Shown piece after piece: positions 1 through 40,140 of a DNA stretch of 40,140 bases. The stretch spans positions 1 through 40,140 of the forward strand of contig JAYWGM010000018.1 in NCBI GenBank assembly GCA_043778225.1. The letters are read 5' to 3'. Source of the DNA: Deinococcales bacterium. Its GTDB lineage: Bacteria; Deinococcota; Deinococci; Deinococcales; JAAFIG01. A program made the position numbers and the translations under genes. Each line of letters begins with the position of its first letter. Positions within the stretch are counted from its first letter, which is position 1. The notes below the pieces were generated by a model. The model did not search any database and was not told the origin of the DNA. It worked only from the letters and a program-made list of their open reading frames with translations.

Positions 1-323
1 TCCCGCCTACATTTTAGAATTTTCAAAAAGCGGCAATTCTGTTCTTGCTCGTAAAATAGCACCTCACGGGCTACTCGCGCTCATTACGGCGGCAGATACA
101 CTGTCCCTACTCCTTTTAGTCGGAAATGTTTTAGCAAAGAACTCTAAAACATTTCGGGGTTATACTTAACGGCAGCCCTCACCCGCCGCGCTTCTGGAAA
201 AAGTTTGGTTCGGGATTTTGAACAAAATGACTCGAGCAGCCGAAAGCAACCATGCTTTCGGCTTTGACTTTGTTGCGTAGCACATTGCTTGAGAATCAAA
301 AACAGGTCAGTATAGAACTCTGC

Positions 324-1469
324 ATGGAACAAAACTGTCCAATTTGCTATACCCAAAATCCAGCCGATGCCACGGTTTGTGAGGTTTGCGGCACTTCGTT
401 TTTAGAATCAAAAGTAACTCAGGTGGTGACCGATGAACTCCAAGCAGGGCAATTGTTAAATGGTAACCAGTACCGTGTGCTGTCGGTGATTGGGCGGGGT
501 GGCTTTGGAATTACTTACCGTGCTTTTCACCTCGAGCGGCGCGAATATGTCGCCATTAAAGAACTTTTCCCAGACGGCTTGGTGACTCGAGACCAAGAAA
601 CTGGTCTGGTGCTGCCCAATTCTGGCGAAGCTCGGGCATTAAGCACTTTGGTACAGCGCTTTGAAATCGAAGCCGATACGATTCGCCAAGTTCGACATCC
701 GACCGCCGTGACGGTACTCGAGACTTGGGAGGAACTTGGCACGGCATATATGGCAATGGAAATGCTCGAGGGCGAAACGCTCGAGCAGCGCATACTGCAA
801 GGTAAACTCTCGGAAAAAAGTGCCAAACGGCTGCTTGTGCCTCTGCTCGAGTGCTTATTTGATTTGCACGAGCGAGATTTGCTACACCGCGACATTAAAC
901 CCAGCAACATCATGATTGTGGCTGGCGAACCGGTGCTGATCGACTTTGGCAGCGCCGCCGATTTTTCACCTCGAGACAGTGTGCGTGTCTCTCATCGGGT
1001 TGTGACTCCAGCTTATGCCCCACTCGAGCAGTATGCCTCGGAAGCCAAATTTGGACCCTACACCGATTTATACAGCCTTGGAGCAACCTTTTATGAAGCC
1101 ATCACTGGTGTGCCGCCGCCCAGTGCTTTGGAGCGACGCAAAGGGGCGCGGCTTGTGCCGGTCACACGCATTAACCCCGAGATAAGCCAGAAATTCTCGA
1201 GTACCCTCGAATATATGCTCGAGGAGCGGATTGCCGACCGCCCACAAACCGCCCAGCACGTACTGCACGAACTTGGCTTGGTGGACATCAAAAGCCGCAA
1301 AGAGTTTTCGATCAAGAGTCTGGACGAACAAAACGGCGTGGTACAAAAATCGCCAGTGGTCTCGAGCCGAATTCCAGAACCACCAGAAAGCCTTGGTCAG
1401 TCAAAAATGAAGGTTTTGCCTCGAGTCAATGCGATTTCGGGGATGATTACCAAATGGCTCAAGCGGTAG
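324..1469 (+). CDS. Hanks-type Ser/Thr protein kinase with N-terminal zinc ribbon
   Basis: CPIC..CEVC ribbon; GRGGFG, VAIKE, HRDIKPSN, DFG, YAPLEQ motifs. Start moved from 252 to ATG 324 (MEQNCPIC). Confidence 0.9.
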   Translation: MEQNCPICYTQNPADATVCEVCGTSFLESKVTQVVTDELQAGQLLNGNQYRVLSVIGRGGFGITYRAFHLERREYVAIKELFPDGLVTRDQETGLVLPNSGEARALSTLVQRFEIEADTIRQVRHPTAVTVLETWEELGTAYMAMEMLEGETLEQRILQGKLSEKSAKRLLVPLLECLFDLHERDLLHRDIKPSNIMIVAGEPVLIDFGSAADFSPRDSVRVSHRVVTPAYAPLEQYASEAKFGPYTDLYSLGATFYEAITGVPPPSALERRKGARLVPVTRINPEISQKFSSTLEYMLEERIADRPQTAQHVLHELGLVDIKSRKEFSIKSLDEQNGVVQKSPVVSSRIPEPPESLGQSKMKVLPRVNAISGMITKWLKR

Positions 1470-2253
1470 ATTTGCCCCAAGTTCGCAGTAAAAAAAGCAA
1501 GACAAACGCCAAGACTGCCATCAGCCCCGATAAAACCAAAGCTGCCGCAAAATCAGACTCGAGCGCTCCGTAAACCGCCAACGTCATGGTGCGGGTACTG
1601 CCCTCAAGTGAACCCGCAAACAGAATCGTTGCCCCAAATTCGCCCAAGGCTCGAGTCCAAGTCAAGACTGCCCCCTCGAGCAAGGCTGGGCGCAGGAGTG
1701 GCAAAGTAATACGCTGCAACACAATGGTTTCGTTTGCGCCATCGACTCGGGCGGCATTCTCGAGGTCTGGGTCGAGTTGCATTAAACCTGCACGGACGGT
1801 GCGAATAAAATAGGGCGCTGCCACAAATAACTGCGCCATAATCACGGCGGTACTCGAGAAGGCAATCTGCACCCCAGCCAACTCGAGTCCAGAACCAAGT
1901 AAGCCATTGCGCCCAAAAGTAAGCAGTAAACCCAATCCAGCCACGACTGGCGGCAAAACAAGCGGCAAATCTAGGGCAGCATCCAAAACTGGTTTGCCAA
2001 AAAAGTCAAAACGCGCCAATAAAAAAGCCACAGGTGTACCAAAAATAATGGTGATGAAAAGCGTAATCATGGTTGTCCAAGCACTGACCCGCAATGCCTC
2101 GAGAACCGCCAAGCTGCTTAGTGCGCCAAGGCTCGAGAGACCGTGCCACAAAATAACACCGACTGGCACAAGCAAAAAAAGCACCAAAGCCGCCGCGAAA
2201 ATCAGCATCCAGATTGGGGCTTTGGCTTTTAAGGTTTTTTGATAAATCCCCAT
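1459..2253 (-). CDS. modB: Molybdate ABC transporter permease
   Basis: LDLPLVLPPVVAG, EAA-like LENAARVDGA, RALGEFGAT; directly follows modA. Exact start uncertain. Confidence 0.88.
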   Translation of the reverse strand: MGIYQKTLKAKAPIWMLIFAAALVLFLLVPVGVILWHGLSSLGALSSLAVLEALRVSAWTTMITLFITIIFGTPVAFLLARFDFFGKPVLDAALDLPLVLPPVVAGLGLLLTFGRNGLLGSGLELAGVQIAFSSTAVIMAQLFVAAPYFIRTVRAGLMQLDPDLENAARVDGANETIVLQRITLPLLRPALLEGAVLTWTRALGEFGATILFAGSLEGSTRTMTLAVYGALESDFAAALVLSGLMAVLAFVLLFLLRTWGKSTA

Positions 2254-2984
2254 TTGTGCAAGATACCTTGTCCAGCTAAACCAAGTACATATGCCGTAAA
2301 ATCTCGAGCCGCGTTTTTGTTGGTCGCCTCGCGCAGCACCGCAATTGGATAGCTTGCCACAACATTTTGGCGTTCTGGAATGGCAATCTCAATAACATTG
2401 GCACGAAGTTCTGGAGTCACATCGGTCGCATAAACCACGCCAGCATCGGCTTCGCCCAGTCGGACTTTAAGCGCTACCTGACGGACATTGCTTTCTTCCG
2501 AGACGACGTTTTTAAGCACTTGACTTTCAAAGTTTGCGCCAAAACGTTTGGTGGCTTGCAGATTTTTAAGCATCTGTCGGGTGTATATGCCAACCGGCAC
2601 AGTCGCTTGGGCTATCACCAATTTGACATTGGGCTGGGCTAAATCTGCCAGTGTTTTGACTCGAGCCAAACCGCGTTTTGGCGTAATAACAATCAGGCGG
2701 TTGCGGGCAAAAATTTGTGGTGGCTCAAGAATTTTCTCGAGTTTGGTGTTGGTATCAGCACTGGCAAAGACATCGGCTTTTGCCCCATTCTCAAGTTGAG
2801 TTCGTAAAATTTGTGAGCCAGCAAATTGAAAACGCACCGCTACCCCAGATTCTTTGCTAAATTCACGCCCTATCTCGGTAAAACTTTCGGTCAGGCTCGA
2901 GGCGGCAAAAATCGTTAGGCTCTGGTTTTGGCTCAAGCCTTTGGCGCAACACAGTAAAAGCAGCAAAACCAAGACTTTTTTCAT
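2229..2984 (-). CDS. modA: Molybdate ABC transporter substrate-binding protein
   Basis: Signal peptide; FAASSL, FAGS, ADVFASAD, VPVG.Y, GEADAGVVYATD. Confidence 0.9.
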   Translation of the reverse strand: MKKVLVLLLLLCCAKGLSQNQSLTIFAASSLTESFTEIGREFSKESGVAVRFQFAGSQILRTQLENGAKADVFASADTNTKLEKILEPPQIFARNRLIVITPKRGLARVKTLADLAQPNVKLVIAQATVPVGIYTRQMLKNLQATKRFGANFESQVLKNVVSEESNVRQVALKVRLGEADAGVVYATDVTPELRANVIEIAIPERQNVVASYPIAVLREATNKNAARDFTAYVLGLAGQGILHKWGFIKKP

Positions 2985-3718
2985 ACAAGCGGTTCTCGAG
3001 CTGGTTTTCCAGCAGCACGGGTTAAACCTCGGGTTTCAGGGCTGGATTCTGGAGGTTTTACAGTTTTGATGTACAATTCAATTGCCACTGCTCGGCGCAC
3101 TTCGGCTCGAGCAGGTTGTAAACCGAGTTGGCTTAACATGGCTGCCACTTTTTGGCGGTTGGGGAAACGCACCCCACTGAGCTTAAACGGGGCTTGCACC
3201 AAACGCCCAAAGTTTGTGTCTGATTCGCACAAGTACATCATAAAGAGCTTGCCACCGTCTTTGAGAACTCGGGCGCACTGCGCCAAGGCTCGAGCCGTAT
3301 CAAAAAACTCGTTGAGGCTTGCACCCATGACAATGCCATCAAAACTCGAGTCGGCATAGGGCAGGTACTCGACATTGGCGTGTTCGTAGGCAATACCACT
3401 GTTATCGCCTCGAGCCATGGCTTTTTCGAGCATCGGTTTTGAAATATCGATGGCGGTTACAATTCCGCCAGCCTTTGCCAAGACTCGAGCATAATTACCG
3501 GTGCTTGTGCCAACATCTAAAAAATTCTGGGCTGGTTGGACTGCCATCCATTCGTTCAATAAGGCAAATTCGCGCTGCAAAGTATAGTTTTCTCGAGTCA
3601 ATAACGATAACGAGCGCTCGCGCCAAAGATCGTACAACTGTGCCGTCAAGGGCAGAAAATTACTGCTTTGGGCGAGGGTATAACTGGCATTTTTTGGCAT
3701 TTTACTGGCGATAGTCAT
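2981..3718 (-). CDS. Class I SAM-dependent methyltransferase (UbiE-like)
   Basis: FLDVGTSTG motif I, IDISKPML, LPYADSSFD, ARVLKDGG. Start at ATG 3718 after TAGACT-N7; ATGA overlap with modA. Confidence 0.8.
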   Translation of the reverse strand: MTIASKMPKNASYTLAQSSNFLPLTAQLYDLWRERSLSLLTRENYTLQREFALLNEWMAVQPAQNFLDVGTSTGNYARVLAKAGGIVTAIDISKPMLEKAMARGDNSGIAYEHANVEYLPYADSSFDGIVMGASLNEFFDTARALAQCARVLKDGGKLFMMYLCESDTNFGRLVQAPFKLSGVRFPNRQKVAAMLSQLGLQPARAEVRRAVAIELYIKTVKPPESSPETRGLTRAAGKPAREPLV

Positions 3719-3903
3719 TGTGGTCAGTCTACACGCCAGACTCGCCCAAGATATTTCTATAGCCCACAAGCTCTGGTAATACAACAATTCAAACCTTATA
3801 CAGACAAAATGAGCTTTTGCTACGATTTGAAAACCTGAGGGTATCTAATTTTTAGAAATTTAATCGTTCTAAACAGCATTTTACTTTCTATCAAGAATCG
3901 CCC

Positions 3904-4884: not shown

Positions 4885-6389
4885 CCCGCCAAGACCAACA
4901 AGCCGAGGTAACGATTATCGGGGCTGGCTTTGCTGGCTTGGTGGCTGGGGCGCTGCTGACCAAAGCGGGGCGCAAAGTTCAGGTTCTTGAGCGCGATATT
5001 CACCCCGGTGGCTGTGCCGCCCGCTACAGCCGTAAGCACCCGCTTGGCACATTTTCTTTTGCAGTTGGCGCGACTGTCTGCGCCGGTCTCGAGCCAAATG
5101 GCATTTTCCATGGCATTTATCAGCGCCTTGGCTTACGCCGCGATTTGCCCAACCTTGACCCTGTGATGCGCTTGCACCTCAACCAACGCCAAGCCCGTGT
5201 TTTGGGTACTCGAGCCGCTTGGAAGAACGAACTCGAGCGAGCCTTTCCCGGGCAACGTAAAGAAAAACAAGCCTTTTGGGCTGAAATTCAAAGCCTCGCC
5301 GATACGATGCACCATGCTGCACGGCGTTTCCCAAGTATGCCGTGGAAAAGCGCTTGGGATGTCTGGGACACCGCCCAAGGAATTCATCCGGGGGTCTTTA
5401 AGGTTTTACTGAGCCTCAAGCAGACAGTCGGGCAACTGCTCGAGAAGCACAAAATTAGCGACCCAGCCCACCGCGCTTTTATAGACGGACAACTGCTCGA
5501 TTCGATGCAATGTGTTTCCAAAGATTGCGCTGCCCCAAATGGCGCTTATGCACTCGAGGTCTACCGTTTTGGGGCGCAGTACGTGCCGGGCGGACTGGCG
5601 ACCCTTGCCGAAGACTTGGCTGGATTTATAGACAACAACGGTGGGAAAGTTCATTATGCAACTCGAGCCAAAAGTATCCTGCTCGAGTCTGGCAAAATAA
5701 AAGGAGTTGAAGGTCATGGGCGCAATTTTCTTTCGCCCGTGGTGATTTCAACTGCTCCAGTTCACGACACCCTGAAGCTAGTTTCTGACCCACGGCTGCT
5801 GCCAGCCACGCAAAAAATCGAGCAAATGCCCGAAATCTGGGGTGCATTTACGATGTACCTTGGGATTAACGAAAAAGTCTTGCCCAAAGGCACTGGTCTT
5901 TTTGAACAAATTTCTGATTACGACGAAAACGGCTTAACCGAGAATTTTCTGGTTTCAATCTCGAGCCACGACGACCGAATTCGCGCCCCAGAGGGCTACC
6001 GCAGCATCACGATTTCGACCCATGTCAGACCAGAAGGCTTTTTTAACCTCAGCCCCGAGGATTACCGCACACAAAAAATTGCTCTTGAACAGCGTATTTT
6101 GCGCCGTCTCGAGTTGCTTTTTCCTGGATTCTCCGACAGTATCGTGCTTTTAGAAAGTGGAACGCCGCGCACCTTCGAGCGTTTTACCCTGCACAGCCTC
6201 GGAAGGGTTGGAGGCATCCCACAAATGCCTCACAGTGCTAATTTTAATGCGCTGCACCACACTTCTGGTCTACCGGGCTTACTTTTTGCCGGCGAGACTG
6301 TTTTTCCCGGACAAGGCACACTCGGCGTTGCCGTCAGTGGCTTTAATGCGGCTCGGACAACTGGGCGCTATTTGGCGCACCTAACCTAA
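4881..6389 (+). CDS. FAD-dependent carotenoid desaturase family protein (resembles cyanobacterial-type C-3',4' desaturase CrtD)
   Basis: IIGAGFAGL Rossmann motif, PGGCA..F.VGAT..AGLEPNG, GTPRTFERFT, FPGQGT. ATGA-coupled to carH. Confidence 0.72.
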   Translation: MTRQDQQAEVTIIGAGFAGLVAGALLTKAGRKVQVLERDIHPGGCAARYSRKHPLGTFSFAVGATVCAGLEPNGIFHGIYQRLGLRRDLPNLDPVMRLHLNQRQARVLGTRAAWKNELERAFPGQRKEKQAFWAEIQSLADTMHHAARRFPSMPWKSAWDVWDTAQGIHPGVFKVLLSLKQTVGQLLEKHKISDPAHRAFIDGQLLDSMQCVSKDCAAPNGAYALEVYRFGAQYVPGGLATLAEDLAGFIDNNGGKVHYATRAKSILLESGKIKGVEGHGRNFLSPVVISTAPVHDTLKLVSDPRLLPATQKIEQMPEIWGAFTMYLGINEKVLPKGTGLFEQISDYDENGLTENFLVSISSHDDRIRAPEGYRSITISTHVRPEGFFNLSPEDYRTQKIALEQRILRRLELLFPGFSDSIVLLESGTPRTFERFTLHSLGRVGGIPQMPHSANFNALHHTSGLPGLLFAGETVFPGQGTLGVAVSGFNAARTTGRYLAHLT

Positions 6390-6430
6390 CCTCGTGCGGT
6401 GCATTCCCGCAAAGAATGTCAGGAGCTTTT

Positions 6431-7060
6431 ATGATGAATTTAGGTACAAACCGACCACATCAAATGCGTTACCGCCGTGGACAAACCGTTTACTACGAAG
6501 GCGACCCCGCGCTATCTTTATTCCGAGTCGAAAGCGGCTTAATTCGGATTGCCAAACTGACCCCCAAAGGACGGGTTTTAACCGTGCGCCATGTTTTACC
6601 CGGCGATTACTTTGGCGAAGAAGCCCTCAATAAGCAGTGGCGCGACCACCAAGTCGAAGCCCTAACCGACGCAACTCTTGTACCTGTAGACCCACAGAGC
6701 ATCACTGGCGATAACCTTGGGGTAGTGACACGCAGTTTATCCGACCAACTGCAACGGGTCATGGCATACGAGTACCACTTACAAATTGGCGACCTGCGGC
6801 AGCGCGTTTCGCGTTATTTGCTGCAACTGGCACAAACTCCACTGGGCGGCACCGATGAATCTAACCGCACCTATGTCCGTGCAACCCACGAACTGATTGC
6901 CGAAGGCACAAGCAGCACTCGAGAAAGTGTTTCTAAAATCATCACCGAGTTGCGTTCAGAAGGCTTATTACAAAGTGGCTACCGCCGCATTACGCTGCTC
7001 AATAACCCAATGCTCGAGCGCATGGCACAGCACTCTGACCTTGACGAAAACGAACTGTAA
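6431..7060 (+). CDS. CRP/FNR-family transcription factor, LdrP-like
   Basis: cNMP-like domain (PGDYFGEEAL) and HTH ATHELIAEGTSSTRESVSK; AGGAG RBS; next to carH/litR as in Thermus litR-ldrP. Confidence 0.8.
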   Translation: MMNLGTNRPHQMRYRRGQTVYYEGDPALSLFRVESGLIRIAKLTPKGRVLTVRHVLPGDYFGEEALNKQWRDHQVEALTDATLVPVDPQSITGDNLGVVTRSLSDQLQRVMAYEYHLQIGDLRQRVSRYLLQLAQTPLGGTDESNRTYVRATHELIAEGTSSTRESVSKIITELRSEGLLQSGYRRITLLNNPMLERMAQHSDLDENEL

Positions 7061-8962: not shown

Positions 8963-9019
8963 TGCGGTGAATTTCGATTATTTCACAGTCAATTTCCAAA
9001 ATAGGTGTACGCTTTTGTG

Positions 9020-11221
9020 ATGAGACGATATTCGCTGGTTTTGGCTGGCATCCTTGCAGTTGCCTGTGGCAGCATTTCCAACTCGGCTGTGCCAAACGGA
9101 TTAAACCCGATTATTTTTGTAACCCAAGTGCCGATTGCGCCAGATTTTACAACCATCGGTTCAACTTTTGGTAATCACCTTGGCAGCATGGAATCGGTGG
9201 CTCGAGGTGGCGATTTGTACATTCGTTATGGCGATGGCAAACTTAAAAACTTGACTTTAGCTGCTGGTTATGGGGTCTCGAGTGGAATGCAGGGCGCAAG
9301 TTCGATTGCGGTGCGCGACCCGAGTGTCCATTGGGATGGCAAAAAAGTTATTTTTAGCATGGTTGTTGGCGCACCGACCAAACAATACGAAGTCAAAAAT
9401 TTCAATTGGCAACTCTACGAAATCAGTAATCTCGAGTCAAACCAAACCCCTATCATTACAAAAATTCCAAACCAGCCGGTCTATAACAATATCTCACCGA
9501 TTTATGGCTCGGACGACCGCATTATTTTTACTTCAGACCGCCCTCGAGATAACTCAAGCCATTTATATCCACAGCGCGACGAGTACGAATCAGCGTTTAC
9601 CAATACGGGTTTGTGGAGCTTAAATCCCTCGAGCAACGACCTTAAACTTTTGAACCATGCCCCGAGCGGCAATTTTACACCGACTTTAGACAGCTTTGGC
9701 AGAATTATCTTTACCCAATGGGACCACTTAAAGCGCGACCAGCAAGCTGATGCCGACAAATATGCGGGGGGTAGTTCTGGCACATTTAACTATGCCTCGG
9801 AAAGCCCCAATGCCGCCAAGTCAAACAGCCGCACCGAGATTTTCCCTGAGCCTCGAGTAGACCAAGAAATTGCTGGTACAAACCTCAATAAGCACGATTT
9901 TAACCAGTTTTTTCCATGGATGATTCTCGAGGATGGTACTGAATCCGAAACGCTCAACCATGCTGGCAGGCACGAATTGATGAGCGGTGATGCAAGGGGC
10001 TATATCGAGCCAAGTTTGACTGACGACCCCGCCCTCGAGACTTTTAGCCCACCAAATCTTAGTAAAAACCAGAATTACATTGAAAATATGTTTCAACTGC
10101 GCGAAGACCCAAGCCGTGCTGGAACATATTATGGCATTAACGCCCCAGAATTTAACACCCATGCCAGTGGGCAAATCGTCAGCCTCAATGGTGCGCCAAA
10201 TGTAGCCGTCAACGAGATGAAAATTACGTATATCACCGACCGCGCCACGGCGAATCCGAGCGAAGACGGTGCAACTGCCAACCCAAATCACTCTGGAATG
10301 TACCGTGACCCTCTGCCACTTAAAAACGGCGAGTTGATTATAGCCCACAGCCCCGAGACTCGAGCCGATAAAGCTGGCGCAAGCATCACCAATTCGCGTT
10401 ATGCCTACCGCTTAAAAAACCTTAAAAAACAAAGTAATGGTTTATTTGTAGCCGACCAAACCCTGACCGACGGGATTAAGAAAACCCTCGAGTTTTGGAG
10501 TCCAGACGTAAAAATAACCTATGCTGGCAACCTATGGGAATTACAACCCATTGAACTGATTGCCAAAAAACGCCCAGCAAAACGCACCGAGCCACTGCCG
10601 AGTTTGGAAGCACAAGTTCTAACCCAAGCGGGGGTCAGCGAAACTGCCCTCAAAGCCTACCTGACCAGCAATAATCTGGCATTGGCAGTGGTGCGTAATG
10701 TCACCACCCGAGATGCTGCCGATTTACAGCAACCTTTTAACCTTAAAGTTCCCAACGGCGTGCAGAGCCTAAGCAGTAAGTACACGGCTGGACAAAAAAT
10801 TTATGATGTCAGTCAGCTTCAATTTTTCCAAGCCGACCAAATACGCGGCTACGGTGGTACAACCACCCCCCAAGCTGGACGGCGCGTGTTGGCACAAACC
10901 CTACACGATACCAAAGCTATAGCCAGCAACACTGCTTATGCCGATTTCACACCCAGCACTGGCAGCCTAGCAGTTGCTACTGACGGCAGCGCCGCCGCTT
11001 TTGTGCCAGCCAGACGCGCTTTGTCGTGGCAACTGAGCAGCCCCAACGGAACACCAGTGGTGCGCGAACGCTATTGGGTGACTTTCCAACCCGGCGAAGT
11101 GCGAGTTTGTACAAGTTGTCACGGGTTAAATGACCAAGACCAAGCAGGAGCAGCCACACCCAGCAATGCCCCAAAGGCACTACTCGAGTTGCTTAAAAAA
11201 TGGAAAGCAGCTAATCCGTAA
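9020..11221 (+). CDS. Lipoprotein with TolB-like propeller and hydrazine-synthase-alpha-like middle domain; single c-type heme motif
   Basis: Lipobox LAVAC; DPSVHWDGKKVIFSM; C-terminal WVTFQPGEVRVCTSCHG (CxxCH). Start ATG 9020 after TACGCT-N6. Confidence 0.65.
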   Translation: MRRYSLVLAGILAVACGSISNSAVPNGLNPIIFVTQVPIAPDFTTIGSTFGNHLGSMESVARGGDLYIRYGDGKLKNLTLAAGYGVSSGMQGASSIAVRDPSVHWDGKKVIFSMVVGAPTKQYEVKNFNWQLYEISNLESNQTPIITKIPNQPVYNNISPIYGSDDRIIFTSDRPRDNSSHLYPQRDEYESAFTNTGLWSLNPSSNDLKLLNHAPSGNFTPTLDSFGRIIFTQWDHLKRDQQADADKYAGGSSGTFNYASESPNAAKSNSRTEIFPEPRVDQEIAGTNLNKHDFNQFFPWMILEDGTESETLNHAGRHELMSGDARGYIEPSLTDDPALETFSPPNLSKNQNYIENMFQLREDPSRAGTYYGINAPEFNTHASGQIVSLNGAPNVAVNEMKITYITDRATANPSEDGATANPNHSGMYRDPLPLKNGELIIAHSPETRADKAGASITNSRYAYRLKNLKKQSNGLFVADQTLTDGIKKTLEFWSPDVKITYAGNLWELQPIELIAKKRPAKRTEPLPSLEAQVLTQAGVSETALKAYLTSNNLALAVVRNVTTRDAADLQQPFNLKVPNGVQSLSSKYTAGQKIYDVSQLQFFQADQIRGYGGTTTPQAGRRVLAQTLHDTKAIASNTAYADFTPSTGSLAVATDGSAAAFVPARRALSWQLSSPNGTPVVRERYWVTFQPGEVRVCTSCHGLNDQDQAGAATPSNAPKALLELLKKWKAANP

Positions 11222-11236
11222 AGTAAGACGCTACAA

Positions 11237-12526
11237 TTATTTTTGAAAAACGATGTCGCCGCCAACCCACACTTGCACTACATCGCTCGAGTTGCCCAAG
11301 GTAAAGAGTCCAGCCAGCTTTCGTTCGATACTTTCAGCGTGCTGCATGACAATTTCAAGCGGCGAATGTTCGGGGGGACGAATATAAACCGCATCAAATG
11401 CCTTTCCGCTCGAGAAATCGCCTACCGTATCGTGTAAATCTAGGGCTTGTGCGCCAGCTCGAGTGCATAAATACAAAAGCTGGCTCGGTGTGAGCCGAGC
11501 GCCTTCTGGCATCAATTGCTGCATAAAATAGGCTTGCAAACCTTCCTTGAGCATCCCATAACCCGTACCGCCACCGACATCTGTGCCGAGGCTGACATGA
11601 ACCCCTGCTTTTAAGTGCCGCCGCAACGGAAAAAATCCACTGCCAAGGCTCGAGTTGCTGCATGGGCAATGGGCAGCACTTGCGCCAGCATTTGCCATGC
11701 GCCCTAGTTCGGAATCGGTGGCATGAATGTTGTGGGCAAGCACGGAACGGCGCGAGACCAGACCAGCCTTTTCGTAAGTCTCGAGGTAATCAGTTGCGGT
11801 CGGGAATAAGCCACGCACAGTTTGGATTTCTTGCAGATTCTCGTTGATGTGGCTGGTAAAACGCACGGTTGGAAATTCTTGGGTTAGCGCTGCACACGCC
11901 TCGAGTATCCCTTCGGAAGCCGACAACGAAAACCTTGGCGTGACTGCGTACAATAAACGTCCCAGACCATGAAACGCCTCGATGAGTGCCTTGCCCTCGC
12001 TGTATGCCAGTTCTGATGTGGTGTGCAATTCGGGGCGCAGCAATCTATCCGAAACGACTTGACCCGCTACAATTCTAAGTCCAGATTTGGCAGCCTCGGC
12101 AAAAAAAACCTTCATCGCACTGGCAAAATGCGACCCGAACACCAACGCGGTGGTCGTACCATGCGAAACCAAACCATGCAGGAATTCTTTAGCCACGACT
12201 TTTGCAAATACATCATCGGCAAATTTGGCTTCGGTCGGTAACGTATTTTTCTCGAGCCACTCGAGTAAACCCATGCCCAAGCCACCCAGCACCCGCCCTT
12301 GCGGATAATGCACATGGGTGTCAATAAAACCGGGCAGAAGCATCCCACCGCGTAAATCCACAACTTCGGCATCTGGAAATTGTGGCTGTAACACAGCATA
12401 ATCAGCACACTCGAGAATCAGTCCAGCCTCGACCAGCACAGCCCCATCCTCGAGAGTTACCAGTGCATCTGGGTGCAAAAAAGCATTTTGTGGCGTGTGT
12501 ACAATACTCGAGCGGTACAGTTTCAT
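11237..12526 (-). CDS. guaD: Guanine deaminase
   Basis: PGFIDTHVHYPQ, VTPRF, HINEN, GTDVGGG; ATGA overlap with xdhB. Confidence 0.95.
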   Translation of the reverse strand: MKLYRSSIVHTPQNAFLHPDALVTLEDGAVLVEAGLILECADYAVLQPQFPDAEVVDLRGGMLLPGFIDTHVHYPQGRVLGGLGMGLLEWLEKNTLPTEAKFADDVFAKVVAKEFLHGLVSHGTTTALVFGSHFASAMKVFFAEAAKSGLRIVAGQVVSDRLLRPELHTTSELAYSEGKALIEAFHGLGRLLYAVTPRFSLSASEGILEACAALTQEFPTVRFTSHINENLQEIQTVRGLFPTATDYLETYEKAGLVSRRSVLAHNIHATDSELGRMANAGASAAHCPCSNSSLGSGFFPLRRHLKAGVHVSLGTDVGGGTGYGMLKEGLQAYFMQQLMPEGARLTPSQLLYLCTRAGAQALDLHDTVGDFSSGKAFDAVYIRPPEHSPLEIVMQHAESIERKLAGLFTLGNSSDVVQVWVGGDIVFQK

Positions 12527-16464: not shown

Positions 16465-16499
16465 GCTAGGAATTAGTTCAAAGTAATTTGGCTTTGGTT

Positions 16500-25796: not shown

Positions 25797-25825
25797 GCGG
25801 CAGTATAACAAGCCGCAGACCCGAT

Positions 25826-26338
25826 TTAAGAACCCGAAATGGTCTTGAGCGCTTTATCTTCGGCAGGAATACGAAAACCCAGCAACAAAATCGCATTCAG
25901 GACTGAAAACACAATCGCAGTTATCCATGCGCCAAAAATGAGCGGCGTAACCAGTAACTCGAGCGCCACAACCATATAATTAGGGTGCTTGACCACGCTA
26001 TAAATCCCAGAGCGCACCAGTTTAGCGTTTGGCACAATAATAATTCGGGTATTCCAAAGCCTACCTAGGCTCGAGATAACAACATAGCGCAAGACTTGAG
26101 CGATCAAAAATAGCCCCAGCCAAAGCCACCACAAGCTCGAGAGAACCGCACCGCGCAGCCACCACGCCTCGAGCAGCAGCGCCAGCACCCAACTCGAGTG
26201 CAGTGCCACCATGTAGGGGTAATGTTCTGGGGCGTGTTCTTTACCGCCGTTTGCCAGCGCCCACGCAAGGTTATTTTTAGCATGACGAAGCTCGAGCAGA
26301 CGCTGGATAATGATTAAAGCAACAAGAACAAATAACAC
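25826..26338 (-). CDS. Isoprenylcysteine carboxyl methyltransferase family protein (BpsB/SrsB-like)
   Basis: [50 protein letters not shown] start after TAACAT-N6. Confidence 0.8.
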
Positions 26339-26396
26339 CCTTTCATGTTACCTGTTTTCTCGATAGGATTTTTGCGAGTTTATGTTCAACAGTGAC

Positions 26397-27395
26397 TCAA
26401 CTCGAGAATTTACGCTTTGGTGCAACTATTTTAATCCCCAAGGCTTTCTGATACGCCACCAAGCGTGTCGGCTCGAGTTTGCCATTGCGAATGGCTTTTT
26501 GTACCACACAACCAAATTCTGTGCTGTGGGTACATTTACGAAACTTGCACTGGGCAGCCAGTGTTTCGATGTCCGAAAAATCTTCGCTTTCCCAAACCGC
26601 AATTTCGCGCAAACCCGGATTATCCACCAACAGTCCACCACTTGGCACAACATACATTGTTCGGGCAGTGGTGGTGTGCTTACCCAAGTGGTCAGTGGTC
26701 TCGCCAGTCAGTGCTGCCTCGCGCCCCAAAATCTGGTTGGTCAGGGTGGACTTGCCAACGCCCGACGAGCCAATTAAAGCCACCGTCTGCCCTGCTTGAA
26801 AATAGGGTGTAAGTTGCTCAAGACCAAGGTTTTGGGTGGCACTTAAAATAAATACAGGCAAACTCGAGGCAATGGTTTTGACTTGCTCGAGAAAAATAGC
26901 TGCATCTGCCACCAAATCGGCTTTGTTCAGAACCACCACAGCTTGTGCGCCGCTATTTTGAACGGCACTGATGTAGCGCGATAGTCTGGGTAGATTAAAA
27001 TCATCATCTAGCCCAAAAACTATCAGCACCGTGTCAACATTGGCGGTCATGACCTGTTGGCTGCTGGCTTTTGGGCGTTGCAGTGTGCCCGCCTGAACCG
27101 CCCTCGAGAACGCTGAGCGCCGTGGTAAAACATGAACAATTCGCAAAGAATCGGCTAAGCGTTGAATCACCACCCAATCGCCAATCACGGGCATAATTTT
27201 ATTTGTGCCATGCAGCAAAGCTCCAGGCAGCAGCGCATTTTCGGCTTGGCTTTGGGTTTGAATTCTAAAAGTTGTGCGGCTCACCCCAGTCACTCGAGCC
27301 GGCAGTAAATCGGGCAAAGATACTTGGTCTATGAATTTTTGGTACTCGGTCGCAAAAAAATCCGACCAACCCAAAGCGTGTAAGGCTTGGTTCAT
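26397..27395 (-). CDS. rsgA: Small ribosomal subunit biogenesis GTPase
   Basis: Circularly permuted GTPase NKAD, GSSGVGKST, GKHTTT, DNPG; Zn site CKFRKCTH...GC. Confidence 0.9.
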   Translation of the reverse strand: MNQALHALGWSDFFATEYQKFIDQVSLPDLLPARVTGVSRTTFRIQTQSQAENALLPGALLHGTNKIMPVIGDWVVIQRLADSLRIVHVLPRRSAFSRAVQAGTLQRPKASSQQVMTANVDTVLIVFGLDDDFNLPRLSRYISAVQNSGAQAVVVLNKADLVADAAIFLEQVKTIASSLPVFILSATQNLGLEQLTPYFQAGQTVALIGSSGVGKSTLTNQILGREAALTGETTDHLGKHTTTARTMYVVPSGGLLVDNPGLREIAVWESEDFSDIETLAAQCKFRKCTHSTEFGCVVQKAIRNGKLEPTRLVAYQKALGIKIVAPKRKFSS

Positions 27396-27418
27396 GCTTT
27401 TCTTAGACCGTTCAACAT
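27392..27418 (-). other. Putative leaderless 8-aa uORF (MLNGLRKA) coupled to rsgA
   Basis: TAGTAT-N6-ATG; its TGA overlaps the rsgA ATG (gcATGA). Confidence 0.4.
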
Positions 27419-27472
27419 GACTTGATACTAGCAGTCTGAGGCAAAAAAACCAATTCTCGAGTACAATCAGTC

Positions 27473-27916
27473 ATGAAAAACTTTTGGGTCTTGGGTTGTG
27501 TAGCTCTTTTGGCTTCTTGCGCTCCGGGTGTCTCGAGTGCGCCCAAGGTTTGTCCGCCCGAACTCAGCACCCCAATTCTCTCGAGCAGTCTTACCCCAGA
27601 CACCGAGCCAGATTCGTTTTGCTTTTCGGATGTGGTTGGTGTTGAACCAGACCCCGTTAAGCCGATTTTATCCAACAGCATCACGGTGCGCGGGATTAAC
27701 CAAATTGTGCCAATCCGAGCCAGCAACGGCACAACTGTCTACGTCAACGACCAGTACCTCGAGTATTTTTCGGACAGTTCGGGGCTAAAAACCGTCAAAG
27801 CTGGCGATAAAGTCAGGGTCGCGGTCAGTGCCAGCAATATGCTCGGTACAGACACCCTCAGCACCATCAGTATTGGTTCGGTCTCGAGTACCTTTCGGGT
27901 CACGACCAAACGCTAA
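27473..27916 (+). CDS. Small lipoprotein with a beta-rich Ig-like repeat domain
   Basis: Lipobox LLASC; DTEPDSF.FSD...SNSITVRGIN...FRVTT; TACAAT-N5-ATG. Confidence 0.7.
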   Translation: MKNFWVLGCVALLASCAPGVSSAPKVCPPELSTPILSSSLTPDTEPDSFCFSDVVGVEPDPVKPILSNSITVRGINQIVPIRASNGTTVYVNDQYLEYFSDSSGLKTVKAGDKVRVAVSASNMLGTDTLSTISIGSVSSTFRVTTKR

Positions 27917-27951
27917 AAGTATTTCGTAAGCCAAATACGGTAAACTAGGCT

Positions 27952-28971
27952 ATGACCATTTATCGGCGTTTGGGTAATTCTGGCTTGCGGGTTTTTCCTT
28001 TGGGGCTTGGCACAATGCAGTTTGGCTGGACCGCCGACGAGGCGGGTTCATTTGAAATCATGGATGCCTATTTTGCGGCTGGAGGCAACTTTATAGACAC
28101 CGCCGACATCTACAGTTCTTGGGCAGCCAATAATGCAGGCGGGGTCAGTGAAGAGATTATTGGGCGTTGGCTTAAAGCCCGTGGCAACCGCGAGCAGATG
28201 GTGATTGCCACCAAAGTGCGCGGCGCAATGGGGCAGAATTTTTCGATGGGGCGCAACACCATCCATCAGCGCGAAGGACTCTCGAGAGGCTGGATTCTCA
28301 AAGCCTGTGAAGACAGCCTCAAGCGCTTACAGACCGATTATATTGATTTATACCAAGTCCATTGGGTGGACACCGAAACCCCAATCGAAGAAACCCTTGC
28401 AGCATTATCGGATTTGGTCAAAAAAGGCTATGTTCGTTACCTCGGATGCAGTAATTTTGGGGCTTGGCGCTTGATGCAAGCCCTGTGGGCTTCGGATAAA
28501 CACGGCTTTGAAAAATTCGTCAGCATTCAGCCCGAGTACAGTTTGGTACAACCAACTCGAAGCAATTTTGAGCGCGAACTGGCTAAGGTTTGCCTCGAGT
28601 ACGGCATTGGGGTAATTCCATACAGCCCATTAGCTGCCGGATTCTTGACCGGTAAATACCGCCGTGGGCAACCATTGCCAGAAAGTGTACGGGCTGGCGG
28701 AATTGGCGCAAATCAAATGAACCAACAAAACTTAGATACGGTCGAAAAGCTGGTCGAGATTGCCGCCGCCAACCAGACATCAGTCACTCGAGTGACCTTA
28801 GCTTGGATGCTGGCACAGCCATTTATGACCGCGCCAATTATTGGCGCAAACAATACCACCCAACTGGCAGATTCGCTGGGAGCAACCGAAATTACCCTCA
28901 GCCCAGAGCAACTCAAAGCAATTTCTACAGTGTCTGATTGGACTCGCGCCAGAACCGACCTCGAGAATTAA
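27952..28971 (+). CDS. Aldo/keto reductase
   Basis: [53 protein letters not shown]. Confidence 0.93.
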
Positions 28972-36118: not shown

Positions 36119-36445
36119 GTCAAATTTTACGTCATGGGATTGTCAAATGCTAGTGAATGAACAAAGGCTTTTTAATACAAATTCCAATGTTTCGCAAAAT
36201 TGTTTGTCAAACATATAAATACCCACTTTATCAAAATTCAGTACCTAAACTATATCGGCTATCTATTTGCTAGACACACTCGAGCCAATGACATAAGGAT
36301 TGCGATTTGATTCTACTTCTAAATCTTGTACCTTGGGAGCGTTAGGCATTTTGCGCTTCTCGAGCCTTATGCTTTTGCCCAGTTTTCTCGAGTATTTGCT
36401 TTTTTACTCAAGCCTAGGCGGCTTGCTTCTTGAGTCAACCCCGAC

Positions 36446-36486: not shown

Positions 36487-39228
36487 ATGAGACATTATTT
36501 GCAATGGCTGGCGTTAGCAACCTTGGCGGTTTTGGTGGCGTGCGGCGGAGGCGGCACAACCCCCAACCCCAACGATTTACAGGTTACACCCGATAAACTT
36601 TTGTACACGATTATTCCCGAAACGGTGCAACTCTCGAGCAACGTGGTTTCTAAAATCTCGAGCGTCAGCACCGTGGATGGCAGCCTGACTTTTACAGGCA
36701 ATCCAGCCGAACTTGCTAATCTCGAGCAGGGCAGTGTTTTACTGTCCCCAGCCAGTCCGCAAACTCCAAAGGGCTTACTGCGAATTGTTAAAAGTAAAAA
36801 ACTCGAGAACGGCAATTTGGTTCTCGAGACCACGGTTGCCCCAATTCAGTTGGCGTTCTCGAGCATGGATATTCAGATTTCACGGCGCATCGATGATGTC
36901 GGTAGTGCCAAAGCCAGTTTACAACCTCAGTTTACGCAAACGATACCGTTTAGCCGAGGATTACTGCTCGATTATGTACCGTACAATGCCGACAATAATT
37001 TAAGCACCACCAACGATCAGATGGTTGTCAGTGGTGGGCTTGGCGTGGGCATGGTTTTTACCTTCAGGCTCGAGTTTGACTGGGGCGGCAAAACAGGCAT
37101 TATCAAAGAAGTGGCAAAATGTCTTGCTTCGGTTGGTATTTTTTGTGATGTGGAAAAAGTCATTCCAGAATTAAAGACTGGACTCGAGTTTGATACTTTT
37201 GCCAAGGCAGGTTTTGGTATCGAAGGGGCTGCCAGTTTACCATTCGACACCGGCGAACGACCCATTTGTGAGGATAATAAAAAGACCTGCCCACCAATTA
37301 ACCTAGGCACAATTCCGGTCGGACCACTGGTCTTTGATGTCGGCTTAGATTTCACTGGACAAATAGATGGTGATGCCTCGAGCAACATTAAACTTGCGGC
37401 TGGAATGGAACTTGGAGTTCGTGCCAGCTTGAGTGCCTCGAGTAAAACAGGGGTTAGTTTTGTACCACCCACACCCTATAAAAAATTTACCCCACCAACG
37501 GTCAGTGCCAGCCTAAAAGGACGCGCTCGAGTTCGGGTCGGTCCACGCTTATCGGTTTTACTGTATGGCGTGATTGGTCCAACCGTCGGCGCACAGTTTA
37601 CTGGTGAAGTCGTGGCGGATGCAGCGCTGACCCCATGCTGGAAACTCAACCTTGGCGTGAGTGCCAGTGTCGGCTTACGTTTACGCATACCGTGGGAGAA
37701 AATTGGCTTTGAAGAAATTGCTGATACGCTTGGTATTAACTTAGATTTATCGAAGTCCAAAAGCTATAACCTGATTAGCGAAACGGTTTTGAGTGGTGCG
37801 TGCAGTGCGCCGCCCATCGGTAGCATCCCGCCCGGAGACAGTCCCTCGAGCCAAACATTGTTAAATCCAACCTTTGTGCCGTGGTCAAAGATGTTTAATG
37901 CCGCCAATGCCGAATTTGCAACTGGTTTTGACTTTAGTTACGAAGAGGGTCAGGTCTGGACTGGTTTTACAAAAACCATCGAAGGCTCAGACGTTTTGCA
38001 ATCTTCGGAGTCGCCGTACACGATTAAAATTTCTCCAACTGGCAATCTGCTTTGGAATAAAATGTTTCGCAGTAAAATTAACGCGCTGGGTTTTGATGAA
38101 GATTATTATTATCCACCCAATGCAGTTGTCTCGAGCCAAGATTCTAATCTACTGATTGCCAGTTCCCCAAAAGGCAGGTTAGTCGCTTCGCAACCACCGG
38201 TTCTGATTCGAGCCAGTCAAGCCGGCGAGGTCATCAGTGCCAGCCAATACTTAACCCATGCCGACGAAAAAGCTGGTTTGACCGGAACACGCAAAATGAT
38301 CGAGCTACCAGACGGGACACTCTACATGCTGACCGATGCCACCGATGCCAACGACAATATCAATATCGTGTTGTTAAAACTCAAAGCCGATGGCAGTCTG
38401 ATTTGGGCAAAAACCATAGATATAGGCAATGAAGATTTACCCACGACCCTCGAGCCAATGCCAGATGGTGGTGTGGTCTTAGCGGGTTACGACTGGCGCG
38501 AATTCCCAACTGGCAGCTTTATCATTCGGCTAGGGGCAGATGGCAGCCAAACTTGGGCAAAAAAAGCCTTTAATTGTGGCTCTGGAAACGCAACTGATTT
38601 GAATATCACAGCCAGCAACAAAACGGGTAGCGGCGATTTACTGTTTGTTGGCGCAGGCGCAATCGCACCAACCGAAGGTGTTTTGATGCAAATTTCACCA
38701 AGCGGCACACTGGTGCAAGGAAAAAGTTACATCACTGGCTCGAATATCCGCAATGTCTGGTTTACGGGCATTCAGCAATTAGCCACGACTGGTTATGTGA
38801 TTAGTACAGTGCGTGAACGGGCATTAAATCAAGATAGCCTTGGTCTGATTGGCTTAGATAGCCTTGGCGGGGTGCAATGGTCACGTTCCTTGAACATTAA
38901 ATCCTTGGCTGGCGAAAACGATGTTTTATCCAGTAAAACCAGTCTGCGCTTAACCACCGATGGCGGCATCATGACCCTAGGCAGTAGCGCTTTCCCAAAT
39001 CCAAATGGCAACCGCATGGGTTTATGGGTTTCTAAAATTCCCGCTAAAAACGGTCAGATTAGCCTCAACTCGAATTTTGACAATGATGAAACACCCGTTA
39101 CTGCCAGCAACTGCACCTTTAGCCTAACTAACATCACGCCCACCATCTCGAGTCGCACCGTATTCACCCGCAATATGACCGTCACGACCGAAGATTTTAA
39201 TTTGCCGACCACCGTCGCAACCCCGTAA
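36487..39228 (+). CDS. Large surface lipoprotein with C-terminal beta-propeller-like repeats
   Basis: Lipobox LVAC-GGGG; repeats LLKLKADGSLIWAK, IIRLGADGSQTWAK, IGLDSLGGVQWSR, IKISPTGNLLWNK. Confidence 0.8.
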   Translation: MRHYLQWLALATLAVLVACGGGGTTPNPNDLQVTPDKLLYTIIPETVQLSSNVVSKISSVSTVDGSLTFTGNPAELANLEQGSVLLSPASPQTPKGLLRIVKSKKLENGNLVLETTVAPIQLAFSSMDIQISRRIDDVGSAKASLQPQFTQTIPFSRGLLLDYVPYNADNNLSTTNDQMVVSGGLGVGMVFTFRLEFDWGGKTGIIKEVAKCLASVGIFCDVEKVIPELKTGLEFDTFAKAGFGIEGAASLPFDTGERPICEDNKKTCPPINLGTIPVGPLVFDVGLDFTGQIDGDASSNIKLAAGMELGVRASLSASSKTGVSFVPPTPYKKFTPPTVSASLKGRARVRVGPRLSVLLYGVIGPTVGAQFTGEVVADAALTPCWKLNLGVSASVGLRLRIPWEKIGFEEIADTLGINLDLSKSKSYNLISETVLSGACSAPPIGSIPPGDSPSSQTLLNPTFVPWSKMFNAANAEFATGFDFSYEEGQVWTGFTKTIEGSDVLQSSESPYTIKISPTGNLLWNKMFRSKINALGFDEDYYYPPNAVVSSQDSNLLIASSPKGRLVASQPPVLIRASQAGEVISASQYLTHADEKAGLTGTRKMIELPDGTLYMLTDATDANDNINIVLLKLKADGSLIWAKTIDIGNEDLPTTLEPMPDGGVVLAGYDWREFPTGSFIIRLGADGSQTWAKKAFNCGSGNATDLNITASNKTGSGDLLFVGAGAIAPTEGVLMQISPSGTLVQGKSYITGSNIRNVWFTGIQQLATTGYVISTVRERALNQDSLGLIGLDSLGGVQWSRSLNIKSLAGENDVLSSKTSLRLTTDGGIMTLGSSAFPNPNGNRMGLWVSKIPAKNGQISLNSNFDNDETPVTASNCTFSLTNITPTISSRTVFTRNMTVTTEDFNLPTTVATP

Positions 39229-39561
39229 AAGGAGCGCAAATGGTTTATCACTGTAGAACTACGCAATGCCATGACCAAAACGGCTCGAGCCGATTGGAGT
39301 GGTTCAGACCGAAATGGCACGAACATCAGTTTGATTCTGGCTTCTGGTAAATCCTTAAAATTAGATAACAATGTTGGTAATTTGGTCTTAACCGACCTTG
39401 CCCCTGGTGCAAGTGTCATCGCCACGCTCGAGTTTAAAGCCGATACCGCCGAGGATAAAGCCACAAAGTTCTTATGGGCAATGAGCGCCGAGTTTAATGG
39501 TGATAAAGCACCTTTGGCTAAAGATGCTGCCTTTCGGATAGACTTAGGTTGCACAAAATAA
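39229..39561 (+). pseudogene. 5'-truncated paralog of the downstream secreted protein
   Basis: WFITVELRNAMTKTA...TLEFKAD...DKATKFLWAMSA versus WIFTVELRNAMNKTA...TLEFTAD..DKPTKFLWAMSA in the 39571 gene; homology starts upstream of the only in-frame ATG near the 5' end (39271). Confidence 0.7.
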
Positions 39562-39570
39562 AGGAGTTTT

Positions 39571-40140
39571 ATGAAAGTAGCTCGAGTTATTCTTGGTGTT
39601 GGTCTAGTTGCGGTACTTGGTTTTGCCTTGGCACAAGCGGTCAAGCAGGTCAGTGTTTCGCTGGCTGGAAAATCCCTCAAGTTAGACAGTGTGATCGTCA
39701 GTGGTAAAACCTATGTTTCGCTCGAGCAACTAAAAAAAGCCTTGCCAAACCCTGTTGGTGGGGCAAACCAAGCGGCGGGTACGACTGGCTGTGTCAATCA
39801 ACTGCTGTTTAATGGCGCGTGGCGTTTTCGGGTGCAAAAATTTGTGTACAGTCTCGAGAAAACCGCTTGGATTTTTACCGTCGAACTTCGCAATGCGATG
39901 AATAAAACTGCCGCAGTCTATAACAATGGCGCAAATGGATTTGGCGAGGATATAACCCTGACGATGGCTTCTGGGAATACCTTAAACATGGGCAATGTCA
40001 ACGAGACTCAGGACAAAATTCTGCTTAAAAACCTTACGGCAGGGGCTGGGGTGGTCACGACGCTCGAGTTTACAGCCGATTCGGACGCGGATAAACCCAC
40101 CAAATTCTTATGGGCAATGAGTGCAAGTAACAACAATGAT
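39571..40140 (+). CDS. Secreted hypothetical protein (runs off the window end; not in the ORF track)
   Basis: AAGGAG RBS, ATG 39571, signal peptide MKVARVILGVGLVAVLGFALA-Q; 190 codons open to the end. Confidence 0.8.
   Translation, partial: MKVARVILGVGLVAVLGFALAQAVKQVSVSLAGKSLKLDSVIVSGKTYVSLEQLKKALPNPVGGANQAAGTTGCVNQLLFNGAWRFRVQKFVYSLEKTAWIFTVELRNAMNKTAAVYNNGANGFGEDITLTMASGNTLNMGNVNETQDKILLKNLTAGAGVVTTLEFTADSDADKPTKFLWAMSASNNND

Follow-up and report, generated by a model that had tools for sequence, protein, structure and literature searches.

A highly iterated CTCGAG palindrome in a family of Deinococcales, alongside a purge of other hexamer palindromes

The window analyzed here is the whole of contig JAYWGM010000018.1 (40,140 bp; C18 in our numbering) from assembly GCA_043778225.1 of a Deinococcales bacterium (hereafter G000: 4.03 Mb in 107 contigs, 89% complete, 48.7% G+C, with no 16S gene present in the genome). 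Its genes are of an ordinary housekeeping kind and comprise a cluster for purine catabolism, ABC transporters, a malate synthase and a glutamine synthetase-like gene. Written across these genes and the spacers between them is the hexamer palindrome CTCGAG, present in 276 exact copies that span 231..40068 (the first at 231-236, the last at 40063-40068) with a mean spacing of 144.8 bp. This represents a 28.6-fold excess over base composition; 100 dinucleotide-preserving shuffles of the window gave a mean of 4.99 copies and a maximum of 14, and none reached 276. A first-pass annotation, made from the letters alone, had estimated about 275 copies at one per about 145 bp, some 28-fold enriched, and had likened the word to HIP1, the highly iterated palindrome of cyanobacteria. 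Its estimate was close to the exact count, and all twelve positions it named (231, 531, 586, 1196, 14837, 27456, 30295, 31876, 31906, 36279, 36359 and 36387) are true sites.

Within the window, 252 sites fall inside open reading frames (ORFs), with 138, 49 and 65 in the three codon phases and with 142 in plus-strand and 110 in minus-strand genes; the other 24 lie in the 4,386 non-coding bases, so the word does occur on both coding strands and between genes, as had been claimed. A single plus-strand ORF (252-1469) uses all three phases, and its sites translate as previously read: CTC GAG at 531-536 encodes Leu-Glu (phase 0), ACT CGA GAC carries the site at 586-591 as Thr-Arg-Asp (phase 1), and TTC TCG AGT the one at 1196-1201 as Phe-Ser-Ser (phase 2). 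Intergenic examples include a site at 14837-14842 and three (36279, 36359 and 36387, spanning 36279-36392) upstream of ORF 36487-39228. The longest CTCGAG-free gap (6114-6917; 810 bp start to start) is ordinary for a Poisson-like spread. Bases flanking the word vary freely, each of the four occurring at 17-31% per flank position, the sole exception being the scarce 8-base palindrome CCTCGAGG. No DNA methyltransferase was found among the window genes, the only two methyltransferase-type ORFs (2981-3787 and 25826-26338) being of the small-molecule kind, which agrees with the earlier statement that the responsible gene lies outside the window.

Genome-wide, G000 holds 24,877 copies of CTCGAG (6.17 per kb, one per 162 bp), and densities on the first 30 contigs listed range from 4.2 to 8.0 per kb, so the excess is not restricted to the window's contig. 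CTCGAG is the top hexamer of the genome; those ranked next overlap it, and the best unrelated hexamer has about one-fifth of its two-strand count. Observed/expected ratios (O/E) under Markov models of orders 0 to 4 were 26.7, 47.5, 15.1, 3.6 and 1.16. The excess is therefore evident at orders 0 to 3 and vanishes in the 4th-order check that the first-pass annotation had proposed, an order that is uninformative here because 89% of CTCGA and 68% of TCGA occurrences sit within the motif itself.

Could such an excess be a relic of ancestral high-G+C codon usage (CTC, GAG), or reflect a current codon or dipeptide preference? Genes in G000 were called greedily by ORF length, which gave 3,500 of 100 amino acids or more that cover 89% of the genome. 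By these approximate calls, coding DNA carries 6.17 sites per kb, distributed over the three phases as 13,058, 4,465 and 4,632, and non-coding DNA carries 6.15 per kb (2,755 sites in 447,747 bases). Five within-gene synonymous-codon shuffles left only 2,341-2,472 of the 22,155 observed coding sites, about 9-fold fewer (89% lost), and three codon permutations left 962-1,073. Leu-Glu pairs were written as CTCGAG in 13,058 of 18,873 cases (69%), yet outside the motif CTC accounts for just 9.6% of the codons for Leu and GAG for 23.4% of those for Glu; by arithmetic from these counts, the odds of Leu-Glu codon choice are shifted toward CTCGAG about 100-fold. Tripeptides behaved similarly, with 56% of (S/P/T/A)-R-(V/A/D/E/G) and 42% of X-S-(S/R) encoded through the word. 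The mirror word GAGCTC, which reads Glu-Leu in phase 0, has 24 copies in the entire genome. What speaks for a codon relic comes from outside the family: in sampled high-G+C genomes of families f4 and f5, sites are mostly in phase 0, and Leu-Glu is written CTCGAG in 21% of cases in a Thermus-like genus and in 54-63% in the other three (Thermus-like and, below, Deinococcus-like are inferred lineage names). Against it stand the equal coding and non-coding densities, the use of three phases, the loss of sites on synonymous shuffling, the minor status of CTC and GAG outside the motif, the rarity of GAGCTC, and lineage-specific gains that go on (see below). We regard this explanation as highly improbable: codon preference is refuted as a sufficient cause, though it may explain how CTCGAG came to be available for co-option. 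The first-pass statement that codon or dipeptide bias alone is insufficient thus stands, with about 2,400 of 22,155 sites kept on synonymous shuffling and non-coding density equal to coding.

The same push is seen where no protein is encoded. Non-coding DNA has 45% G+C, a composition that predicts only about 0.19 sites per kb, so the non-coding excess is about 32-fold. Density stays level at about 6 to 7 per kb at the starts and ends of genes and in every intergenic class, with tandem spacers at 6.15, convergent at 6.71 and divergent at 6.34 per kb, approximately the coding density. The push is thus similar in strength in non-coding DNA (about 32-fold) and where only synonymous choice is free, with odds shifted roughly 25- to 100-fold. 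Predicted tRNA genes (n = 68) had 6 sites versus 32.6 expected at genome density, and strong constraint can therefore override it. A tRNA cluster (Ser, Cys, Glu, Met) within 3 kb on another contig (G000:C19:9937-12769) has four tRNA genes that contain the word, out of just 6 among all 68.

Amino-acid sequences have been altered by the push as well. No dipeptide in G000 is more over-represented than Leu-Glu (O/E 2.32), versus 0.97 for Glu-Leu. The malate synthase gene of the window (24252-25811, minus strand) has 16 CTCGAG sites, versus 0 in the orthologue of a Deinococcus-like genome (G020), 0 in that of a Thermus-like genome (G022) and 5 in that of a third genome of the order (G116). At those 16 sites, the encoded peptide is the same as in the outgroup at 1, 2 and 2 sites, respectively, against background identities in the same alignments of 37-45% for dipeptides and 25-32% for tripeptides.

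Comparison with five genomes of the same genus, aligned to positions 9000-28000 of the window at 74-77% nucleotide identity, revealed both retention and gain. CTCGAG was conserved at 52-69% of aligned sites versus 19-24% for all other hexamers, and aligned pairs were bimodal: 62% identical, 7.8% with one mismatch (background, 35.5%) and 30% with two or more. Codons were better conserved inside the motif than outside it (CTC, 0.65 versus 0.29; GAG, 0.69 versus 0.35; TCG, 0.65 versus 0.43; CGA, 0.52 versus 0.43), and 9 of 11 non-coding site pairs were conserved versus 20.8% of other non-coding hexamers. Among 114 site positions covered in five genomes, 32 were occupied in all five and 33 in one only. 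Where a site was unique to G000, or to G000 and its congener G007, the relatives mostly had a synonymous or conservative variant 2 to 5 letters off, within well-conserved flanks. From this turnover and these variants it follows that sites are both retained and still created, by substitution; the gain/loss check proposed in the first-pass annotation thus gave high retention together with single-lineage sites. Indels lay closer to CTCGAG sites than random positions did (62% versus 42% within 20 bp of a site), a difference confounded by alignment anchoring and variable regions.

The chance that the excess stems from faulty assembly or binning, or from a dispersed repeat or inserted 6-bp units carrying the word, can be regarded as practically negligible. 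Contigs assembled independently from two public runs had 0 differing letters from window positions 9000-28000 on long pieces, although the two runs come from a single study, and the analyzed DNA may itself derive from one of them. The excess recurs in all 19 genomes of the family, G000 included, and in the nearest named public record, 'MAG: Deinococcales bacterium' JAAFJQ010000012.1, whose malate synthase has 85% amino-acid identity and whose locus has 43 CTCGAG and zero GAGCTC in 7.5 kb. A mobile repeat or six-base insertion was rejected on the random flanks and on indel contact, CTCGAG touching indels in 3.1% of cases versus a background of 3.4%.

Not all members of the order share the excess that marks the family. 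CTCGAG counts across 121 genomes of the order were combined with 60-200 kb samples of seven genomes, in which ORFs of at least 150 amino acids were chosen greedily, weighted by third-position G+C. All 18 other family genomes had 4.3-6.8 sites per kb, and the sampled genera (four others plus G000) ranged from 49 to 61% G+C. G000 itself had 6.17 per kb, a synonymous-shuffle ratio of 9.2 and 6.15 per kb in non-coding DNA. In contrast, other families of the order showed a weaker excess, none, or avoidance. Two genera of 63-65% G+C and about 3 Mb (G116 and G070) had 2.9-3.3 per kb, shuffle ratios of 2.6-3.2 and non-coding densities of 2.5-3.2 per kb, and CTCGAG encoded 60-63% of their Leu-Glu pairs; a single genus of family f2 (G019) had about 2 per kb, a ratio of 2.65, 1.7 per kb in non-coding DNA and 46% of Leu-Glu. 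The Thermus-like genus had about 0.9 per kb, a ratio of 0.73 and approximately as many GAGCTC as CTCGAG. The Deinococcus-like genus (26 genomes) avoided the word, with 40-942 sites per genome. In the viral database IMG/VR, contigs with three sites within about 120 bp were, among the matches listed, mostly of high G+C with GAGCTC common too; four of the listed matches had the family signature, with CTCGAG:GAGCTC counts of 39:0 (L236), 35:3 (L238), 28:1 (L240) and 18:1 (L221), 60-67% G+C, 3.5-3.9 CTCGAG per kb and almost no GAGCTC. With this composition, they could be phages or prophages whose hosts are related Deinococcales.

Taken together, CTCGAG is almost certainly a true highly iterated palindrome, a whole double-stranded word that is favored, kept and still created throughout the family. 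The suggestion that a genome-wide system creates or retains the motif is borne out by genome- and family-wide density, above-background conservation and continuing gains. The fixation bias on the complete word is about 30- to 100-fold and acts on double-stranded DNA regardless of coding; it is independent of translation, of gene position and of any restriction enzyme or methyltransferase found conserved in the family.

The bias concerns the complete word, at all six of its positions, rather than single letters of it. A tally of single-mismatch neighbors, which the first-pass annotation had proposed, showed no drain: the nine neighbor classes had O/E of 0.15-1.41, and the three transition neighbors 1.16-1.41 (CTTGAG, 1.41; TTCGAG, 1.37). 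A T:G repair bias at one or two positions could do no more than convert these neighbors into CTCGAG and back, and is excluded because the 27-fold excess comes without drained neighbors. Vsr-type repair was likewise rejected, there being no PF03852 in the 89%-complete G000 and no depletion of CTTGAG or TTCGAG, and no methyl-cytosine hot spot was visible among the C-to-T neighbors of CTCGAG. The one flank effect, the scarcity of CCTCGAGG, amounted to 243 copies versus about 815 expected.

Spacing bears on a second explanation, that CTCGAG is the binding site of an abundant, conserved chromosomal protein (nucleoid, replication or repair) with its density set by ordinary selection. The word had been described as evenly spread, which holds in the Poisson-like sense (the Fano factor of counts was 0.88 in 500-bp windows and 1.0 in those of 1 kb) but fails as regular spacing; at larger windows the factor was 1.2-1.5, and control hexamers gave 1.06-1.25 at 2 kb. 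Pair correlation was 0.48 at 10-20 bp, 0.83-0.90 to 60 bp and about 1.0-1.05 further out, with no periodic, nucleosome-like or helical phasing in G000 pair distances up to 1.5 kb. Pairs 6 bp apart number zero in the genome because they would form the purged GAGCTC. Doublets 7 bp apart (CTCGAG-N-CTCGAG) number 123, with any N and random flanks, approximately the plateau level (none falls in the window). Pairs 8-20 bp apart are depleted (30-153 at each distance, and only 30-53 at each of 8-11 bp), so that the exclusion zone begins at 8 bp and not at contact. This depletion would reflect avoidance of short hairpins between two palindrome copies rather than a protein footprint. The genome has 14 gaps longer than 1.8 kb, one of them a methylase/GmrSD islet on contig C40. 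In favor of a binding site are the conservation of sites in coding and non-coding DNA, the argument that Xu et al. make from the same pattern for selection on HIP1 and a nucleoid role (PMC5861425), the density of 4.3-6.8 per kb held over a family G+C range of 49 to 61%, and its level course over gene features. The Poisson-like counts, the pair correlation of about 1.0 past 60 bp and the lack of a period speak against it, as do undepleted 7-bp beside depleted 8-20-bp pairs, which hairpin avoidance fits better, and no candidate protein was found. We consider a chromosomal binding site a serious candidate, albeit a doubtful one.

Set against this single favored word is a near-total purge of other hexamer palindromes, an observation that is new and was absent from the first-pass annotation. 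In G000, 31 of the 64 hexamer palindromes have O/E of at most 0.05 (1 to 52 copies versus about 1000 expected); the median O/E is 0.077 for palindromes versus 0.82 for non-palindromes, and CTCGAG is the one strong exception. Shorter words are affected too, with 131 sites of GGCC (O/E 0.01) and an O/E of 0.13 for GATC, as are degenerate or interrupted ones: GRCGYC (15 versus 3,535 expected), GWGCWC (O/E 0.022), GRGCYC (0.023), RGATCY (0.026), GACNNNGTC (0.039), RGGNCCY (0.042) and GGYRCC (0.049). These words match real restriction enzyme specificities in shape, and an EcoO109I-family nuclease gene adjoins a C5 methylase on contig C99. Within the window, the other 63 palindromes sum to 179 versus 618 expected, 39 of 64 lie below 0.1, and counts are zero for GAGCTC, hexamers containing GGCC, CTGCAG and GACGTC. 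The mirror word GAGCTC has 0-25 copies in 14 of the 18 other family genomes. The purged sets vary by genus (AAGCTT has 36 copies versus 19 expected in G011, and 0 versus 10 in the window), and the purge is therefore a lineage-specific history, unlike the family-wide CTCGAG excess; it is consistent with a large, fast-changing restriction repertoire in the lineage. Restriction-site (palindrome) avoidance in prokaryotic genomes was reportedly described by Gelfand and Koonin in 1997. What G000 has in common with such avoidance is the shape of restriction specificities; what is unusual is that about 30 words stand at no more than 5% of expectation and that one palindrome goes in the opposite direction, about 1000-fold relative to its mirror word.

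A restriction-modification origin for CTCGAG itself was sought and rejected. The word is identical to the recognition site of XhoI/PaeR7I, yet restriction normally depletes its own site, whereas CTCGAG is 27-fold enriched, and a search for XhoI-family nucleases (PF04555) found none in G000 or the rest of the 19 family genomes. Other parts of the order do have the nuclease: it is present in 5 of the 23 genomes that make up family f4, and one f2 genome retains a broken copy. At the two f4 loci inspected (L354 at G021:C1:73699-77256, and L353 in G097), an intact copy is convergent with a PF01555 methylase and adjoins a DeoR regulator. The f4 carriers do not avoid CTCGAG: four of five have 0.7-1.8 per kb, and G097 about 1.2. 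The f4 XhoI-linked methylase has no good match in G000 and at most 29% identity to any family methylase compared.

A third explanation is a ratchet of the kind proposed by Elhai, in which a CTCGAG or TCGA methyltransferase marks the site, methyl-directed mismatch repair fixes site-creating mutations, and the excess is a by-product. Potential marking enzymes are plentiful, with more than 17 DNA methyltransferase genes in G000: five full C5, about four to five N4/N6, eight N6_Mtase hits (three of them HsdM), several Eco57I-type and three Dam-family; NCBIfam gave no specificity for the G000 methylases. The model itself, and the association of alternate HIPs with methyltransferases, are set out by Elhai in 2015 (PMC4390886), and a 2026 preprint lists CTCGAG as a methylated motif in hot-spring community genomes, which may or may not belong to Deinococcota (10.64898/2026.06.24.734251). 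The f4 nuclease, with adjoining PF01555 methylases at two loci in genomes that do not avoid the word, is also compatible with such a ratchet. Conservation across the family, on the other hand, was lacking. All hits to PF00145, PF01555, PF02384, PF07669 and PF02086 in G000, G010 and G013 were clustered at 40% or higher identity over 60% of length, and among these five Pfam classes (the families searched) no methyltransferase cluster was common to the three genomes. The only cluster shared by G010 and G013 was a type I HsdM, 25-28% identical to those of G000. PF01555 is missing in 3 of 19 family genomes, including the single-contig G013; PF00145 (C5) in 2 of 19, including G010; and PF07669 in 1 of 19. 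This survey covered 30 loci per search in methylase-rich genomes, the genomes are incomplete, and specificity is not readable from sequence.

Two individual methylases were considered as the cause and set aside. The first, a 650-amino-acid gamma-class enzyme with a TaqI-like (TaqI_C) specificity domain on G000:C65 (L016/L093), is present in 3 of 19 family genomes only. It overlaps a 264-amino-acid ORF without a family and lies with a PIN-domain gene; methylase and ORF are conserved in G000, G001 and G003 only and probably form a complete restriction-modification unit. The second, a conserved 294-amino-acid Dam-family methylase (L204), is carried by 7 of the 18 other genomes of the family, and a 72%-identical relative sits in a Deinococcus-like genome where CTCGAG has just 40 copies. 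With these distributions, the distance of the XhoI-linked methylase and the lack of a methyl-cytosine hot spot, we judge an Elhai-type ratchet to be distinctly unlikely. The orphan methyltransferase with biased repair that the first-pass annotation had offered as an example finds no XhoI nuclease (19 genomes), no Vsr (G000) and no family-wide methyltransferase orthologue (five Pfam classes) in its favor. As no methyltransferase orthologue spans the family genera, a HIP-type methylase association is unsupported here within the limits of the search.

The comparison with HIP1 is nonetheless apt. Like HIP1 (GCGATCGC) and the alternate HIPs, CTCGAG is a short palindrome over-represented tens of times lineage-wide, in genes (all frames) and between them; in both, sites and their codons exceed background conservation, and DNA of recent import is devoid of the word. 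The two differ in phylum (cyanobacteria versus another), in length and letters (8 versus 6 bases, a different word) and in density, CTCGAG occurring once per 162 bp and HIP1 at most once per 350 nt (PMC5861425). For CTCGAG, moreover, a cognate methyltransferase conserved in the family was not found, and unlike HIP1 it stands in a genome otherwise almost purged of hexamer palindromes. Xu, Lawrence and Durand in 2018 describe HIP1 abundance as unknown outside cyanobacteria and its distribution as periodic at long range (10-90 kb) (PMC5861425), Kamoku and Nielsen report that methylated HIP1 boosts natural transformation up to more than 100-fold, possibly as an uptake or Chi-like signal (10.1101/2024.09.10.611283), and Rodriguez-Cruz et al. 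in 2026 propose HIP1 as a phylum-wide uptake watermark (PMC13756078). A full-text literature search found no published report of a CTCGAG excess. CTCGAG is thus a second, denser counterpart of HIP1, in another phylum.

Other self-DNA words offer a looser parallel. The DNA uptake sequences (DUS) of Neisseria, the uptake signal sequences (USS) of Pasteurellaceae and Chi are short words, over-represented genome-wide, that flag self DNA for a machinery processing it, and such words can spread by molecular drive and reshape proteins. DUS and USS words are asymmetric, of 8-12 bases (Chi, 5-8), and occur about once per kb or less; all are often located in terminators or co-oriented with replication. 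CTCGAG, in contrast, is a palindrome with about six times their density, at the same level everywhere. An uptake sequence of the asymmetric, 9- to 12-base, terminator-enriched type is therefore not what was found, the word being a 6-base palindrome with spacers at coding density.

As to what reads the word, we tentatively favor a kin-DNA watermark recognized during DNA uptake or recombination, which by analogy could quite possibly apply here and which we prefer because it matches the recent experimental suggestions for cyanobacterial HIP1. The likely reader would be the machinery for uptake or recombination of kin DNA, and CTCGAG would be a palindromic analogue of uptake sequences or Chi sites. 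It could have spread via preferential uptake or recombination of CTCGAG-bearing alleles, via selection for exchange, or both, and the approximately 30 erased restriction words would be a separate, lineage-specific mark of a heavy, fast-changing restriction load. A ComEC homologue is present in G000. A more specific version, which we put forward as speculative, is that CTCGAG is an independently evolved palindromic passport for kin DNA that uptake or recombination machinery would read with no dedicated conserved methyltransferase, paired with the erasure of about 30 words, such that chromosomal DNA would both pass the many restriction barriers of the population and be marked as self.

Several points weigh against the watermark. 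No excess is seen in the Thermus-like genus, and CTCGAG is avoided in the Deinococcus-like one, although cultured Thermus and Deinococcus are naturally transformable. Compared with CTCGAG, known uptake sequences have more bases, lack palindromic symmetry and occur about six times less densely, and the ComEC homologue, being near-universal, has little diagnostic value. The HIP1 effect is methylation-dependent, while no conserved methyltransferase was found in the family. The patterns of conservation and gain cannot tell selection from biased conversion, nor a binding-site from an uptake function, and the crude gene calls make the phase and non-coding counts approximate.

Apart from CTCGAG, the window has a few other features. 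ORF 9005-11221 encodes 738 amino acids that are poorly explained, with a weak hydrazine-synthase-alpha-like middle domain only, and the 913-amino-acid product of ORF 36487-39228 is without a Pfam match. A repeat of about 111 bp at 16382-16502, with no CTCGAG inside, is matched at 96-98% identity by two more copies on contig C15; a hairpin-like core of 28-30 bp within it is found on about six further contigs and on many same-genus contigs, and the contigs of the public runs end there as depth goes up. A second short, G+C-rich intergenic repeat lies at 14875-14935, between two xanthine dehydrogenase genes, and its core of about 27 bp is shared with three further contigs and with relatives.

For three decades HIP1 has posed a puzzle, one believed to concern cyanobacteria alone; a second such word in another phylum enables comparative tests. 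Useful features of this one are its apparent lack of a methyltransferase partner and its gradient across the order, from extreme through mild and none to avoided, and for the milder lineages, which may include cultured members, complete genomes of about 3 Mb exist. The ratio of CTCGAG to GAGCTC provides a sharp marker for binning genomes of the family and for flagging imported DNA, and the list of purged words predicts the restriction systems circulating in the lineage. If the kin-DNA passport proves true, HIP-type words would have arisen convergently as a general way to exchange genes despite heavy restriction, and would not be a cyanobacterial oddity.

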